Counted from the stretch's first letter, positions 3,041 through 47,467 are shown. The stretch is 64,000 bases of DNA from an uncultured delta proteobacterium (GCA_963745035.1 CAVUVW010000021.1:160001-224000); one strand, 5' to 3'. Notes: a model not told the origin generated them from the letters alone. Numbers and translations are program-made.

Positions 3041-4048
3041 CTATTTGAGAATCTCCGATAATTTTGGAATCAATGCCTTGTCGAGGGCGAACAGCTCTTT
3101 GATGTTGCGCTCGAGGGTAACGCCGTCCAGCGGGTTCAAATCGAGTTTGGCCCTTTTGAGCTCGGCGCCGAATTCCTGATCTTTCATCGTATCCATGAAG
3201 GCTTTGCGCAGCATTTCAACGCGCGCCTTCGGAGTGCCGGGTGTGACAACATAAGGGCGCGCGGTCGCGCCGAAGTTGTTGATGACCCCTTGAACGAGCT
3301 TTTTCCCCATATCGGTTTTCGCATACTCGATCACCAGCGGTACGTTGGCCAACTCGGGATGGCGTTTGCCGGCCGCTTGCAGAAGAACTACGGCGTCGCC
3401 GTTTTGCAGCTCCTGCGGCCAAGTGGAGACCATCGACTCCCAGGCATTGGCGACGCCATCGACTTCGCCGCCGTTGAAGGCGAGGCGGATGACCGCACTG
3501 CCCTTATATCCGGACACCACTTGCAGCGGCAGGTTCAACGCTTCTTTGGCGATCTTGGGAATCGATTCGTTAGCCGAGCCGGGACCGGTGCTGCCGAACT
3601 TCACCGGCGTAGGATGCGCGAGCCATTGCTCGACCGTCCTGATGCCGGTGCGTTTATGAACGATCAGCAATTGCGTGTCCTGCGCCGGCGCGCCGATATA
3701 TTCGAATTTTCTGCCGTCGAACTCGATGCCCGGCTTGCCGATGAGCTGATCGACGAACATGGTGCCGATGGGCGTGCCGATGGTGAGGCCGTCCGGTTTG
3801 GCCGCTTTATAAACGTGATTGATGCCGATCAGCCCGCCGGCACCGGTCATGTTCTCGACGACGAAAACCGGATTGCCCGGAATGTATTTTCCCATGTGGC
3901 GACCCATCACGCGGGAGTAAATGTCGTAGCCTCCTCCAGCGGCGAAGGGCACGACAATGCGAATCGTTTTGCCCTTGAAGAATAAATCTTGGGCCCATGC
4001 CGCGTCGCTCAGGATCAGGATGAGCGCCAATGCCAACCGCCTAGCCAT
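3041..4048 (-). CDS. Bug/TctC-family substrate-binding protein
   Basis: FFKGKTIRIVVPFAAGGGYD, PGNP and VENMTGAGG motifs; signal peptide. Confidence 0.9.
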   Translation of the reverse strand: MARRLALALILILSDAAWAQDLFFKGKTIRIVVPFAAGGGYDIYSRVMGRHMGKYIPGNPVFVVENMTGAGGLIGINHVYKAAKPDGLTIGTPIGTMFVDQLIGKPGIEFDGRKFEYIGAPAQDTQLLIVHKRTGIRTVEQWLAHPTPVKFGSTGPGSANESIPKIAKEALNLPLQVVSGYKGSAVIRLAFNGGEVDGVANAWESMVSTWPQELQNGDAVVLLQAAGKRHPELANVPLVIEYAKTDMGKKLVQGVINNFGATARPYVVTPGTPKARVEMLRKAFMDTMKDQEFGAELKRAKLDLNPLDGVTLERNIKELFALDKALIPKLSEILK

Positions 4049-42825: not shown

Positions 42826-43267
42826 TCAAGCGTTATCCAAAATCAAAGTCACGGGACCGTCATTGACGAGGGCTACTTTCATGCGCGCCTGGAAGCGGCC
42901 GGTGGCGACCTTCAAGCCCGCGTCGCGCAGTCGTTCGATGAAATATCGATACAGCCGATCGGCCTGATCGGCCGGCGCGGCGCCGGTGAACGACGGGCGA
43001 TTGCCCCTGCGGCAGTCGCCGTACAACGTGAACTGGGAAATCACCAGGACTTCGCCGCCGCGATCGATGATCGAAGCGGTTCATCTTGCCTTGGTCGTCT
43101 TCGAAGACGCGAAGATTTCTGAGCTTGTCGGCGAGTGCTTCGGCGTTTTTGTCGCCATCGTCGCTGCCGACGCCGATGAAAACGCATAGCCCGGCGCCGA
43201 TCTCGCCGACGATCTCTTCACCCACAGCGACGCGGGCTTCGGCGACTCTCTGCACGACGGCTCGCAC
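42826..43267 (-). CDS. dtd: D-aminoacyl-tRNA deacylase (frameshift near 43070)
   Basis: MRAVVQRV, LRVFED, SQFTL, GNRPSF and NDGPVT motifs. Confidence 0.9.
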
Positions 43268-43437: not shown

Positions 43438-44186
43438 ATGCTCAACGCCACTCGTGTTCTGGTTGTGGTGACGCCGATCTTGTTAGCGGCGGGTTCGTCC
43501 GCGCTATGTGCGGCCGAACCGCGGAGCCGTGTCGCCGGCGGCGTGCCGGTTGCCGAAGTGCTGGCCAGCGTCAGCGGCACCGTGAGCGTCGCAGGGAATC
43601 ATCAACGCGCGAAGCCGCTGCCGGTTTTCAAAAACCGGTCATTCTGCGGCGCGCAAGTGCCGAACGAAACTTTGCTGGTCGGACGACACGGCGGTTTGCG
43701 AAACGCTGTTCTTACGTTCCATCCTCTCCATAGGAAGGCTGCCGCGCAGCCCATGAAGCTGGTCCTAGACAATAAACAATGCGCATTCGCGCCGCACGTG
43801 CAGGTCGCCGCCTTGGGTAGTGATTTGCTGCTCAAGAATAGCGATCCGATTCTTCACACCGTGCACGCGCGCCTGGGCAAAGAGACTTTGTTCAATGTCG
43901 GCTTGCCGAGATGGCGCCAAGTTACAAAACGGCTGGACCGGGTCGGCGTCATCAGAATCGACTGCGATGTCCTCCATACATGGATGAGCGCTGTCATCAT
44001 CGTTACCCGGACTCCATACTTTGCGATTAGCGACGAAGATGGAAAATTCATCGATCGATCAGTTGCCTGCCGGCCCATACCAAGTGGAAATCTGGCATGA
44101 AAAGCTCGGTATGAAGTCGATGAGGATGGCGGTGGATGGTGACACTATCACTCGACGTCGTCTACGCTCTGAACGGAAAATCTTAA
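43438..44186 (+). CDS. Secreted cupredoxin-like/carboxypeptidase-regulatory-domain protein (frameshifts near the 3-prime end)
   Basis: LDNKQCAFAPHV, NSDPILHTVH, CDVLHTWM, PYFAISDEDG and WHEKLG motifs. Confidence 0.7.
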
Positions 44187-44259
44187 CAGGTCGCCGTAGT
44201 GCCAGGGCCAGGGCGTCAGCACGATCTAGCCAACATCTTATCTAGATCTCATAAACGTA

Positions 44260-44272
44260 AATCAATAACTTA
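44260..44272. promoter_or_regulatory. IHF consensus site
   Basis: AATCAATAACTTA matches WATCAANNNNTTR exactly. Confidence 0.55.
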
Positions 44273-44295
44273 TAGCCTGCCGTATCTCAATATCT

Positions 44296-44434
44296 TACAG
44301 CTCTCGATTTTTATTGAACAGCTGTCTTCGAAATTCTCGTAAGCTGTACAAAATTAATAATCAGCTGTTTATCTATTGAATAAGAGCTGATTGGTTGATA
44401 GAAAACAGCTCGTGCATTGATGTTGAGAGCTGTG
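44296..44434. repeat. Phased array of seven palindromic (C/G/A)AGCT(G/C) boxes, 21-22 bp period, upstream of dndB
   Basis: AGCT at 44299, 44320, 44342, 44363, 44385, 44407 and 44428; AT-rich non-identical spacers; no off-phase AGCT. Confidence 0.88.
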
Positions 44435-44442
44435 AATAGAGT

Positions 44443-45552
44443 ATGAAACTTACTTTTCCTGTCATAAAGGGAAACATGGGCGGGCGACAGTACTATTCGC
44501 TCCTGGTTCCGCTCTCAGAGATTCCTCATTTATTCAAATTCAACGACTGGACAGGCTGTACTCCCGAATTGCAGGCGCAAAGGGTTCTGAATAAGGCGAG
44601 GGTTCCAGACATCTCAGAATACATACTCGATAATGAGAACGGATACTTGTTCTCGTCGATCACTGCTTCGTATTCGTGTCCGGTAAAGTTCGTTCCATCA
44701 GCAGATAACGCCGAAGTTGGAACTTTAGAGATGGAGCTCGAAAACCTGGAGTTTATCATCAACGATGGCCAGCATCGGTGCGCGGCGATTGCTGCGGCAC
44801 TCAAGGAGAATCCCGCGCTTGGGAAGGAAAAAATCTCGGTGCTTCTCTTTGAGACGGAAAGTTTGGAACGGCTTCAGCAGATGTTCTCGGATTTAAATCG
44901 ATTCGTGCAGCAAACATCAAAATCGTTAGGCATGCTCTATGATCGTCGAGATAATCTTTCTGCGCTCACAATGGAGCTGGCCGACCAGGTCGACGTATTC
45001 CGAGACATGGTGGACAAAGAGAAGGTGACGATTCCGCGGAGGTCCCCCAAACTTTTTACCATCTCCGCTTTATATGAAGCGAACGAAGAATTGCTGGGTA
45101 AAAAAATCGCTGAACAGGGATCATCGGTCTACGCAGAAATTCTCAGCAGGGCTGTCGACTACTGGACGGAGCTTTCGAAGGTCATTGGCGACTGGCAGAA
45201 AGTCAAGAATGGAGAACTTGGCGCTTCCGACCTCCGGCAAGAGAAGATCAATACTCATGCGGTGGTTTTGCGCGCGCTGGGAGGCGTCGGAAGGATTTTG
45301 TTCGAAAAATATCCCGGCAACTGGCGGGAGAAACTCAAGCTCCTAGAACGGCTTGATTGGCGGAAATCCGTGGATGGTAGCGCGAATCCTCTCTGGGATG
45401 CCGTATGCATCACAGCAGGCTCAGTTGTCTCCAATAGGCAGGCGCGAGCAGCTACGTTGGCAGTCTTGTTGAGAGAAATAGGCGAATCGCCAAATGGAAA
45501 AATGGCACACAAGGAATTTGCGGAGGTGACTAGTGCGCAAGCGGCTCAGTAA
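44443..45552 (+). CDS. dndB: DndB-like DGQHR-domain protein (orphan)
   Basis: AQRVLNKARVPDI, YLFSSITAS, INDGQHRCAAI, QQMFSDLNR, LYDRRD and KLFTISALY motifs. Confidence 0.88.
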   Translation: MKLTFPVIKGNMGGRQYYSLLVPLSEIPHLFKFNDWTGCTPELQAQRVLNKARVPDISEYILDNENGYLFSSITASYSCPVKFVPSADNAEVGTLEMELENLEFIINDGQHRCAAIAAALKENPALGKEKISVLLFETESLERLQQMFSDLNRFVQQTSKSLGMLYDRRDNLSALTMELADQVDVFRDMVDKEKVTIPRRSPKLFTISALYEANEELLGKKIAEQGSSVYAEILSRAVDYWTELSKVIGDWQKVKNGELGASDLRQEKINTHAVVLRALGGVGRILFEKYPGNWREKLKLLERLDWRKSVDGSANPLWDAVCITAGSVVSNRQARAATLAVLLREIGESPNGKMAHKEFAEVTSAQAAQ

Positions 45553-47467
45553 CGGAAAGCAGCGAAAAAATTCTGCCGTTGCCGATCAGCAGAAGCCTGC
45601 AGGCAGCGTTCAAAGTTCGACCGATGGCGAAATCGCGAGTCCGAGCCCAACCGAAGATTCAACCACAACTCGCCTGCGGCAATTGCTCCCTACTGCATGG
45701 AACATGATTCGACCCTACTGGTCCTCGGAGGATCGATGGGCGGCTTGGGGGCTGGTCGTCGTCGTTATAGGACTCACTCTAGCGATGGTCCACATGAGTG
45801 TTCTGTTTAATCACTGGAACAACGCCTTTTACACCGCTCTGCAGGAGAAGAACCATACAGTTTTTTCCCAGCAGCTGATCGGTCTTTCCTGGCTTGTGGG
45901 TCTGACAATTGTCTTCGCTGTTTATCAGCTTTATCTGAACCAGATGCTCGAGATCCGCTGGCGGCGCTGGCTTACGGAGCGATATCTCCGGGCCTGGCTG
46001 AGCGACGGCGCCTATTATCGGATGCAACTCGTGGCGCATGAAACGGACAATCCCGACCAGCGCATCGCTGAAGACGTTCACCTGCTCATTTCTCATACCC
46101 TGACGCTTGTCATCGGAGGCCTGCGCGCGCTGGTAACTTTGGTTGCCTTTGTGGCGATCCTCTGGGGGCTGTCCGGAACGCTCACCGTTCCGCTTCGCGG
46201 GTGGTTCTCCATTATGCTGCCCGGCTACATGGTATGGGCGGCGATCTTGTACGCGATCGGCGGCACTTGGCTCACCCACTGGATTGGCCGTCCGCTGGTG
46301 CGGCTGAATTATGACAAGCAGCGTTGTGAAGCCGACTTCCGGTTCGGCCTGGTACGCTTCCGGGAGAATACCGAAGGAGTGGCGCTCTACCGGGGCGAAG
46401 CAGATGAACTTCGCGGTTTTCGGCAACGGTTCGAGGCGGTGGCGATGAACTGGTGGGACATCATGCGTCGCCAGAAGCGGCTGACCTACTTCACTTCGGG
46501 CTACCAACAAGCGGCTTGGATTTTTCCATCGCTTGTCGCGGCGCCACGTTACTTCAGCGGCGTTCTTACTCTGGGTGGGCTCATACAAACCATCGGCGCT
46601 TTCAGTGCGGTACAGGCTTCGCTTAGCTTTTTTATCGACTCGTATAAGGTGATCGCTGAATGGTGCGCGGTGGTTGAGCGGCTCTCCGGTTTCGAGCTGG
46701 CGCTTGACCGCGTGCGCATCCAGGCGGAGACTGGCGATGGTGTCCGGCGCATCGACGGAGACGCCACCCATCTGACAGTTGAGGGTGTGGATCTCTATCT
46801 ACCCGATGGTCAGCCGCTTATCGCGGATGTGAATCTCTCGCTCTTGCGTGGAGACACAGTCCTCTTGGGGGGAGCTTCCGGTTCGGGAAAGAGTACGCTG
46901 TTCCGCGCGGTCGCCGGCATCTGGCCGTTTGGGCGTGGCGAGATTCGCGGACCCAGCGGCGCCCAAGTCCTCTTTCTGCCGCAGAAGCCCTACCTGCCGA
47001 TTGACACCCTTCGGCAAGTGGTGAGTTATCCGATGCCGGCGGGTGGGGTGGATGACGTGACAGTGCGCGAGGCTTTGGAGGCCGTGGGACTCCGTGACTT
47101 AGTCGTTCGACTCGACGAAGTTGGCCATTGGGCGCTCCAACTCTCTCCAGGTGAGCAGCAGCGCATCGCCTTCGCGCGAGCGCTGGTTCAGAAACCCGAA
47201 TGGCTCTTTCTCGACGAGGCGACATCGGCGGTTGACGAGACTACAGAGGCACGGCTTTATCGACTGGTGCGCGAACGGCTCGCGGGAACGACGGTATTCA
47301 GTGTGGGCCATCGCGCGACGCTGCGTCCGTTCCATGCTCGCCAGCTTCTGGTGCGGACCAATGGCAACGGGCCCGCCTCCATCGTGGAAGTGACGGCTGT
47401 GCCAGAGTTGGTTCGACGTGGGCCTGGCGTTTCTACGCAGGACGAAACGGTTGCGATGGCTGGATAA
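45533..47467 (+). CDS. Fused ABC transporter permease/ATPase, YddA/SbmA-BacA (ABCD-like) family; start uncertain
   Basis: IRWRRWLT, DNPDQRIAED, EADFRFGL, GASGSGKST, LSPGEQQR and LDEATSA motifs. Confidence 0.9.
   Translation: MRKRLSNGKQRKNSAVADQQKPAGSVQSSTDGEIASPSPTEDSTTTRLRQLLPTAWNMIRPYWSSEDRWAAWGLVVVVIGLTLAMVHMSVLFNHWNNAFYTALQEKNHTVFSQQLIGLSWLVGLTIVFAVYQLYLNQMLEIRWRRWLTERYLRAWLSDGAYYRMQLVAHETDNPDQRIAEDVHLLISHTLTLVIGGLRALVTLVAFVAILWGLSGTLTVPLRGWFSIMLPGYMVWAAILYAIGGTWLTHWIGRPLVRLNYDKQRCEADFRFGLVRFRENTEGVALYRGEADELRGFRQRFEAVAMNWWDIMRRQKRLTYFTSGYQQAAWIFPSLVAAPRYFSGVLTLGGLIQTIGAFSAVQASLSFFIDSYKVIAEWCAVVERLSGFELALDRVRIQAETGDGVRRIDGDATHLTVEGVDLYLPDGQPLIADVNLSLLRGDTVLLGGASGSGKSTLFRAVAGIWPFGRGEIRGPSGAQVLFLPQKPYLPIDTLRQVVSYPMPAGGVDDVTVREALEAVGLRDLVVRLDEVGHWALQLSPGEQQRIAFARALVQKPEWLFLDEATSAVDETTEARLYRLVRERLAGTTVFSVGHRATLRPFHARQLLVRTNGNGPASIVEVTAVPELVRRGPGVSTQDETVAMAG

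Follow-up and report, generated by a model that had tools for sequence, protein, structure and literature searches.

The 64,000-nucleotide stretch of DNA analysed here (the window) carries seven AGCT-core palindromes in helical register directly upstream of a dndB-like gene. This array is real, unique in its genome, under selection, overlaps promoter elements and is inherited with one clade of DndB proteins. Because the same layout accompanies the DndB family in many phyla, the boxes are most likely DndB's own multi-site operator; we give a probability of roughly 70% to the reading in which the seven boxes form an autoregulatory operator bound cooperatively by DndB, the predicted binder.

Seven phased AGCT boxes precede a dndB-like gene

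The array (44298..44432, no strand assigned) is defined by the exact positions of its boxes, its uniqueness in the genome and its conservation. The AGCT cores lie at 44299-302, 44320-323, 44342-345, 44363-366, 44385-388, 44407-410 and 44428-431, giving core-to-core gaps of 21, 22, 21, 22, 22 and 21, and the hexamers from box 1 to box 7 read CAGCTC, CAGCTG, AAGCTG, CAGCTG, GAGCTG, CAGCTC and GAGCTG. A first-pass annotation of this DNA had listed these seven positions with their gaps and flanks, all of which are exact, and had described the spacers as all different, as indeed they are. It also placed the last box 11 bp before the ATG correctly: the box ends at 44431, the ATG begins at 44443, and 11 bases lie between. 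Its estimate of about 0.5 AGCT by chance agrees with the 0.45 expected per 147 bp from local composition.

Across 300 simulated 64-kb sequences (Markov-1), the longest chain of AGCT with 21/22-bp gaps was 1 in 68 runs, 2 in 229 and 3 in 3, compared with the 7 observed; the analytic expectation for a 7-chain in 7.43 Mb is 7e-9. The genome (7.43 Mb in 28 contigs, 58% G+C, 92.6% complete) contains 29,494 AGCT in total, and its 21/22-gap chains comprise one 7-chain, which is the window array, one 5-chain and five 3-chains, leaving the window array as the sole chain of six or more. The 5-chain (C13:138816) falls in coding sequence for a coiled coil whose Q/K/E-L codons follow the heptad.

Base composition changes across the region. 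G+C is 44% in 44000-44399 and 42% in 44200-44599 (400-bp windows over the array), against 58% for the genome. Between 44000 and 45000 it falls from about 60% to 42-48% over the array and the 5' half of dndB, and values of about 46-55% persist through much of the downstream glycosyltransferase/methyltransferase region. The low G+C across the array, dndB and the downstream region fits acquired DNA.

Boxes are conserved within the genus while spacers drift

We compared orthologous loci to assess the conservation of the array. An ortholog at 81-90% identity occurs in 12 of 31 genomes of the genus, the window genome included, and the 11 of these 12 loci that have upstream DNA formed the basis of the comparison. 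Boxes in the 22-bp register were found in all 11: eight loci have seven boxes (gaps 21-23 bp), one has six, and the remaining two have, respectively, five in register with one slot lost and four with one more in register. In a MAFFT alignment, identity to the window was 0.96 over 28 box columns and 0.54 over 105 spacer columns. Judged by this alignment, the array is a conserved cis element under selection.

A degenerate 'box 0' region (44256..44276, no strand assigned) emerged from comparison with relatives. Six relatives carry AAATCA-N2-3-AGCTT at this place, 24-66 bp upstream of box 1, which in three of the six reads AAATCAAAAGCTT; the window has AAATCAATAACTT, in which the AGCT is gone.

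In two genomes (G003:C2:117704-118806 and G044:C8:301520-302624; L006/L009 and L015/L016) the dndB ortholog is present as two overlapping pieces, and the seven-box array is intact despite the split. The split could reflect an assembly error, a frameshift or other recent break, or a need for the boxes by another factor as well.

Promoter-like elements lie within the array

A candidate promoter, TTGAAT-N17-TAGAAA at 44376-44404, had been described as straddling box 5, and this description stands: TAGAAA occupies 44399-44404 and box 5 lies in the spacer. The -35-like hexamer TTGAAT (44376..44381, + strand) is identified by consensus match and conservation, and the putative extended -10-like element TGaTAGAAA (44396..44404, + strand) by conservation. 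In the same-genus loci a TATTGA block is conserved just before box 5, the -35 reading TTGACA in 7 of 11, and TGnTA is present in 11 of 11, just before box 6 and 17 nt after the -35. As a pair, TATTGA and TGnTA resemble a -35 and an extended -10. Transcription beginning about 7 nt past the -10 would start at box 6, which would put the boxes at about -112, -91, -69, -48, -26, -4 and +18.

A simple promoter and terminator scan of the region found no site; the promoter scan was negative because the scanner requires T as the last -10 position. That the -10 TAGAAA is without this usual final T counts against the best reading. Beyond the genus, the -35 is immediately preceded by one box (AGCTcTTGACA) and the -10 by the following one (AGCTgTATAnT), with a final box 20-30 bp before the ATG. 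Relative to the promoter, the box register in this genus is about 7 bp off from that of the other phyla, a further point against the best reading.

The dndB gene lies outside a Dnd operon

The gene behind the array (44443..45552, + strand) encodes a 369-aa DndB-like protein of an orphan clade that lacks dndC, as judged from Pfam, PADLOC, TIGR03233, a tree and a structural model. It matches PF14072 at 2e-102 (343.2 bits, cut-off 29.1), is assigned to DndB by PADLOC, and passes TIGR03233 narrowly (331.9 bits, cut-off 328). The DGQHR motif (D108-R112) is invariant across an alignment of 20 sequences, and the TIGR03187 DGQHR domain scores 223 bits. The genome holds a second, weak DndB/DGQHR-family match (38.8 bits; L018, G000:C14:498229-498615), which lies in a 376-aa open frame and covers just profile positions 36-164.

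A search of the 92.6%-complete genome for DndC (TIGR03183) gave no match, nor did one for DndE (PF08870), for which the control was likewise without a match anywhere, so that the DndE negative carries little weight. The gene next after dndB is an ABC transporter gene and not part of a dndCDE operon. Since the protein passes the DndB models and lacks this operon context, it is a family member by sequence that stands outside the Dnd system. The label of orphan given to it earlier is thus supported as far as it is testable, by the absence of DndC from the genome search.

The ABC transporter gene (45533..47467, + strand; 644 aa, with an ABC_membrane_2/SbmA_BacA permease and an ABC_tran domain by domain matches) overlaps the 3' end of dndB by 20 nt at its start, and is presumably co-transcribed with it from the array promoter. 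Contrary to the proposal of a stand-alone DndB-plus-array unit, the unit does not stand alone in this genus: the ABC gene overlaps and trails dndB in 9 of 9 assessable loci (9 of the 11 same-genus loci, the two remaining ones stopping at a contig edge). The ABC gene is followed by genes for a PIG-L deacetylase, methyltransferases and glycosyltransferases, and housekeeping genes lie upstream of the array; the neighbours include a SpoU methylase and a D-Tyr deacylase fragment. The latter is a D-Tyr-tRNA deacylase ORF of 135 aa (42860-43267, - strand) that matches positions 1-63 of a 144-position Pfam model, and the gene may be truncated or frameshifted.

Arrays recur upstream of one DndB clade in many phyla

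Using an alignment of 20 diverse homologs, we scanned one genome per species and kept the best 80 loci, at 38-91% identity. A chain was defined as at least four AGCT with gaps of 20-24, or 42-46 for one missing box, and 588 kb were scanned. Eighteen chains of at least four were found, in 18 of the 80 loci, all of them within 200 bp upstream of the DndB start; elsewhere in the 588 kb there were none. The carriers belong to Binatia, Alphaproteobacteria and other Pseudomonadota, Gemmatimonadota, Methylomirabilota, Nitrospirota, Chloroflexota, Verrucomicrobiota and Vulcanimicrobiota, a count of eight phyla that follows submitters' labels, mostly of metagenome-assembled genomes. The expectation that orphan DndB homologs would have periodic palindromes at 21-22 bp upstream was therefore borne out, and the proposed tie between array and DndB holds, the array being kept in orthologs while the spacers drift and recurring upstream of one clade.

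The arrays contain 4-8 boxes with the consensus a-S-AGCT-S-t. Among 107 boxes, C or G precedes AGCT in 105 and follows it in 106, with a weaker preference for A at -2 (52) and T at +5 (58). The 88 single gaps measure 22 bp in 64 cases, 23 in 15 and 21 in 9, with a mean of 22.07 bp.

In a quick maximum-likelihood tree of 78 proteins (L053, L055 and L063, whose frames are broken before 300 aa, were omitted), all 19 carriers, the window included, fell within one 31-row clade (SH-aLRT 99), which joins a 12-row sister group in a 43-row clade (SH-aLRT 99). The next downstream gene was DndC in 31 of 62 tested loci and DndD in one more; all 32 are outside the 43-row clade, on one side of a branch with support 99 that has the window on the other. 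DndC was the next gene in 0 of 29 clade loci tested. The clade's next genes instead encode a soluble protein of about 750-860 aa, an ABC transporter (Binatia only) or small ORFs of 80-117 aa, or no same-strand gene follows. The array is not obligatory, as six of the 31 clade members (L026, L031, L033, L034, L036 and L042) have no periodic array.

We also scanned metagenome contigs blindly for four SAGCTS boxes at exactly 22 bp, which returned at least 109 stretches, of which 80 were fetched. Ten of the 80 adjoin a DndB homolog, whose start is 14-125 bp from the array, and their neighbouring spacers are 0.27-0.56 identical. In the other 70 the spacers repeat too, with a consecutive-unit identity of 0.56-1.0 in 69, while the seventieth (L171, 0.33) looks on inspection like a compound repeat of about 44 bp; none of the fetched loci with repeated spacers adjoins DndB. 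Among the 80 fetched loci, therefore, recurrence of the boxes alone was seen only beside DndB. Three metagenome contigs, L109 and L141 (about 1456-1570) and L137 (1501-1570), contain whole-unit 22-bp tandem repeats with GAGCTG or CAGCTG that resemble iterons; they lie away from DndB and are unrelated to the array finding. A scan of viral contigs yielded three canonical-type DndB loci only (38-40% identity), with the orphan clade absent, and the 15 phage records listed of 43 matches were all at most 39% identical.

A 15.4-kb plasmid of Neorhizobium sp. SOG26 (NZ_CP025514.1, L208) carries an orphan-clade DndB at 48% identity with an array at 3817-3974 that spaces seven AGCT boxes and a degenerate AGATCT at 22 bp. 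The locus is flanked by a divergent TIR-domain gene and, on the opposite side, by CopG and two N6 DNA methylase genes; these surroundings are a defence-island setting.

Variant boxes keep the spacing of the array

Several loci have other boxes with the same period of about 22 bp and the same promoter overlap: GATGTC (L021), CAACTC/AGTTGC (L022) and AGASTCT (L040), with GAGCGG (L037) and a degenerate CAGYTG (L028) as further variants in the clade. ACGTC boxes at about 22-bp spacing, which likewise abut the -35 and -10, lie upstream of DndB in L044. ATAAACA boxes (L047) have the same layout, but this locus is in the 12-row sister group. Variant boxes at unchanged spacing suggest that the operator's specificity has switched between lineages.

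When the 220 bp upstream were autocorrelated for 5-mers in either orientation, the counts at lags 21/22/23 were 66/135/70 for the 18 AGCT loci (background about 14), 30/40/32 for 18 close homologs without an AGCT array (background about 11) and 71/49/31 for 44 more distant, mostly canonical loci (background about 30). As a null, 387 downstream 220-bp windows gave a best 5-mer chain of 3 in five windows and of 4 in none, compared with a best chain of at least 4 in the upstream DNA of 21 of 80 loci. Among canonical dndB-dndC promoters (L062-L098), many proteobacterial loci have two to five GTTTG/CAAAC boxes, and archaeal loci repeat CTTCCA at intervals of about 21 bp, in two or three copies.

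A different palindrome, TGAGCG-N3-7-CGCTC, occurs in the leader of a number of loci, 20-70 bp before the DndB ATG, where it fills one 22-bp box slot (L029, L030, L031, L034, L036, L037, L038, L039, L043, L046, L050, L057, L058 and L078; also L208:3943-3961). In the L050 and L058 copies, and in that of the Neorhizobium plasmid, the central bases are AGCT. Three Verrucomicrobia loci without an AGCT array carry the palindrome as well, and the window lacks it. Its role could be that of a second operator or of an RNA hairpin.

In nine loci a soluble protein of 754-858 aa is encoded directly after the orphan dndB (L021:3842-6289, L022:4620-6995, L023:2533-4932, L024:4548-6890, L025:4601-7015, L028:4649-7030, L057:4545-7121, L059:4612-6957 and L063:2119-4383), with 31-82% mutual identity. 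It matched no Pfam, NCBIfam or PADLOC family, and PADLOC found nothing among the small ORFs of the clade. HATPase_c_3 occurs in 26-30% of the members of look-alike clusters of this protein in the Atlas, pointing to a GHKL-type ATPase. Four of the loci have a convergent gene of about 300-360 aa after it. Orphan dndB and the gene for this protein may together form an undescribed module.

DndB has a putative ParB/Srx-like domain and a candidate DNA-reading motif

The AlphaFold2 model of the window's DndB (pLDDT 85.1, pTM 0.73) has two parts, an N-terminal alpha/beta domain at about residues 7-156 and a helical domain at 157-350 that had no clear structural match. With VIA-align, the N-domain gave PadC (6ryk) at Z 7.7 (rmsd 2.9, 99 aligned), KorB (8qa8) at Z 6.2 (94 residues), pNOB8 ParB (5k5d) at Z 6.0 and sulfiredoxin (6ky4) at Z 5.6; all are below the level for a clear match, Z 8, and they are mutually consistent and at the top of the list. 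Foldseek on the model returned nothing at E <= 0.001, with ParB N-domains as the top weak matches, and a PDB sequence search found no relative. As modelled, the N-terminal domain is a candidate ParB/Srx-like domain.

We searched for residues that covary with the box, and a single column emerged, S330, with counter-examples. It lies in the motif G-S-V-V-S-N-R-Q-A-R (residues 326-335), at the start of a helix. All 19 of the 19 AGCT-array proteins have Ser330; L021 (TH) and L022 (GN), the lineages whose boxes diverge most, do not. In L040 and L037, however, the boxes differ and yet the SNRQ(A/S)R motif is unchanged, and the covariation between protein and box consequently rests on two lineages. 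In canonical DndB the equivalent stretch is a variable patch, G-R-V-S-K-x-x-x-N. We regard the 326-335 motif as a candidate DNA-reading element, a lead and not a result.

A proposed model for autoregulation and its alternatives

We infer DndB as the binder, together with its stoichiometry, its cooperativity, the direction of regulation and the nucleotide response, in the following model. DndB, a predicted ParB/Srx-fold nucleotide-binding repressor, would bind each 6-8 bp palindrome a-S-AGCT-S-t as a symmetric unit; these units are probably dimers, because the box is palindromic. With a 21-22 bp spacing, consecutive units would face almost the same side of the helix, which would let neighbours make contact and bind cooperatively. 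Two 10.5-bp turns fall somewhat short of the mean gap of 22.07 bp, and alignment on a single face would thus need slight unwinding or a gently winding protein array. Spanning about -112 to +21 of the TTGAAT-N17-TGaTAGAAA promoter, the bound array would occlude RNA polymerase, and covering the promoter in this way would repress both dndB and the overlapping SbmA/BacA-type ABC transporter gene. If this DndB behaves as canonical DndB does, nucleotide (ATP or GTP) binding would be expected to release the protein. A preprint reports that a DndB-like protein binds ATP and GTP (10.1101/2025.10.10.680097).

The strongest competitor, which we nevertheless consider unlikely, is that another regulator or a nucleoid protein binds the boxes and that DndB is merely the regulated gene. 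Conservation inside the genus does not by itself identify the bound protein, and the two orthologs with a split dndB retain their arrays. However, the array tracks the DndB clade through eight phyla in which the neighbouring genes are otherwise unrelated. In an all-versus-all comparison of ORFs of at least 50 aa from 16 non-redundant array loci, DndB was present in 16 of 16 and the next real family in 4 of 16, the families found in 11-13 loci being shadow frames inside dndB. DndB is therefore the only common ORF family, and nothing else travels with the array. A factor shared by Binatia, Alphaproteobacteria, Nitrospirota, Chloroflexota and Verrucomicrobiota and yet specific to dndB is improbable, and the box sequence also switches among closely related DndB lineages.

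Somewhat less probable again is that AGCT is a target of DNA modification such as methylation, so that the array reports modification state, with or without DndB as the reader. AGCT, GAGCTC and CAGCTG are classic restriction-modification sites, and the DndB family belongs to DNA-modification systems. The Neorhizobium plasmid array lies beside N6 methylase genes, and a paper reports an effect of phosphorothioate sites on dndB expression in Streptomyces (PMC8569181). Against this explanation, the array loci have no methyltransferase or Dnd modification gene in common, and DndC was not found in the genome. A modification target would need neither strict 22-bp phasing nor overlap with the -35 and -10, and variant boxes such as GATGTC are not palindromic.

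We think it very improbable that the array acts without a bound protein, as a bent or easily melted promoter scaffold. The spacers are A+T-rich in a 58% G+C genome, as such a scaffold would have it, but they drift, and the conserved part is a G+C-containing palindrome with near-invariant C/G flanks, not A-tracts. The switching of boxes between lineages under a constant layout fits sequence-specific recognition instead. That the region works through folding of the self-complementary boxes, as an RNA leader or a DNA cruciform, can be practically dismissed: the window strand does fold beyond its shuffles (-48.4 kcal/mol, z = -4.9), but the consensus fold of the 11 orthologs is box-on-box pairing only (-10.6 kcal/mol) with no helix past the boxes, its covariation term of +0.81 adds nothing, the best Rfam score is 19 bits against an 84-bit threshold, and boxes 1-5 would stay untranscribed because the conserved promoter sits inside the array.

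The first-pass annotation had likened the array to a centromere or a set of iterons. Only the period fits, and we rejected this idea: the whole unit is not repeated or conserved, a repeat search of the window array gave short partial matches between units only, and no Rep initiator, ParA or partition genes were found near the array.

Autoregulation by DndB also admits a wider reading, possible if rather doubtful, in which an orphan DndB and its phased SAGCTS array make up a self-contained switch that moves horizontally. Here 4-8 units would polymerise over about 150 bp of the promoter of dndB in a ParB-like, nucleotide-gated manner, and the filament would be the sensor of an undescribed defence or stress module with outputs swapped between lineages. 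If so, the outputs would be the GHKL-like ATPase of about 750-860 aa in nine loci, the SbmA/BacA-type ABC transporter in Binatia and small ORFs elsewhere, and S-N-R-Q-x-R (330-335) would be a reprogrammable specificity element.

Significance and comparison with known systems

A literature search found no description of phased DndB arrays or of the orphan clade in the sources that it covered, which exclude most subscription journals. DndB has been characterised as repressing the phosphorothioation operon, from two footprinted sites in a single organism. The orphan clade is large, spans at least eight phyla by submitters' labels, is abundant in metagenomes and lies outside the dnd operon. Close proteins number 2,642 in metagenomes, and hits in genome contigs roughly 600 or more. 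It appears to have retained the operator and expanded it into a phased array, with 6-8 bp constrained in every 22. The array would offer a clean setting in nature for studying how a putative ParB/Srx-fold nucleotide switch binds cooperatively and in helical phase, and provides a simple sequence signature for finding such cassettes, one that is sharp, widespread and directly testable. Cultured carriers include Sphingomonas sp. Leaf21, Bradyrhizobium sp. LTSP849, Sandarakinorhabdus rubra MO-4 and the 15-kb Neorhizobium plasmid, and the unnamed partner genes may form a new defence or stress module.

By analogy, the array would work like the autoregulation of Salmonella DndB and, more loosely, like ParB-family repressors such as KorB. 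The DndB of Salmonella enterica Cerro 87 (DptB) shares the family (TIGR03233 and PF14072) and the use of very short palindromes that overlap the promoter; according to the published account, it was footprinted on palindromic TACG/CGTA motifs in its own promoter, which it represses (PMC4507180). A Salmonella dndB locus (L209:270-313) has four ACGT cores and an upstream TACG, 8-11 bp apart and within about 45 bp upstream, with TACGTA-like boxes among them, in agreement with the footprinted motifs as given there. The same account describes two footprinted regions close together that control the dndCDE modification genes. In contrast, the array described here has 4-8 AGCT-core boxes at a strict 22-bp spacing over about 130-150 bp, to which DndB is predicted to bind, and its clade lacks an adjacent dndC (0 of 29 downstream genes tested) and has other cargo, in this genus an ABC transporter.

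The likeness to KorB of plasmid RK2 (PDB 8qa8) would lie in the putative ParB/Srx-type N-domain, matched at Z 6.2 over 94 residues. KorB is a ParB-family transcriptional repressor that acts at palindromic OB operators. Its 13-bp operator palindromes occur one at a time at dispersed places on the plasmid, and KorB forms a CTP-dependent clamp that works with KorA. The sites described here, unlike those known for KorB, form a local phased array, and the C-terminal domain of DndB is without a clear match. Multiple sites at whole helical turns with cooperative binding are also known from F sopC/SopB, R1 parC/ParR and the 22-bp iterons of Rep proteins; SopB is in the ParB family, and a 22-bp period is typical of iterons. 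In iteron and centromere arrays the whole unit is repeated, whereas in the array upstream of dndB 6-8 bp in every 22 are conserved and the spacers between them are unrelated.
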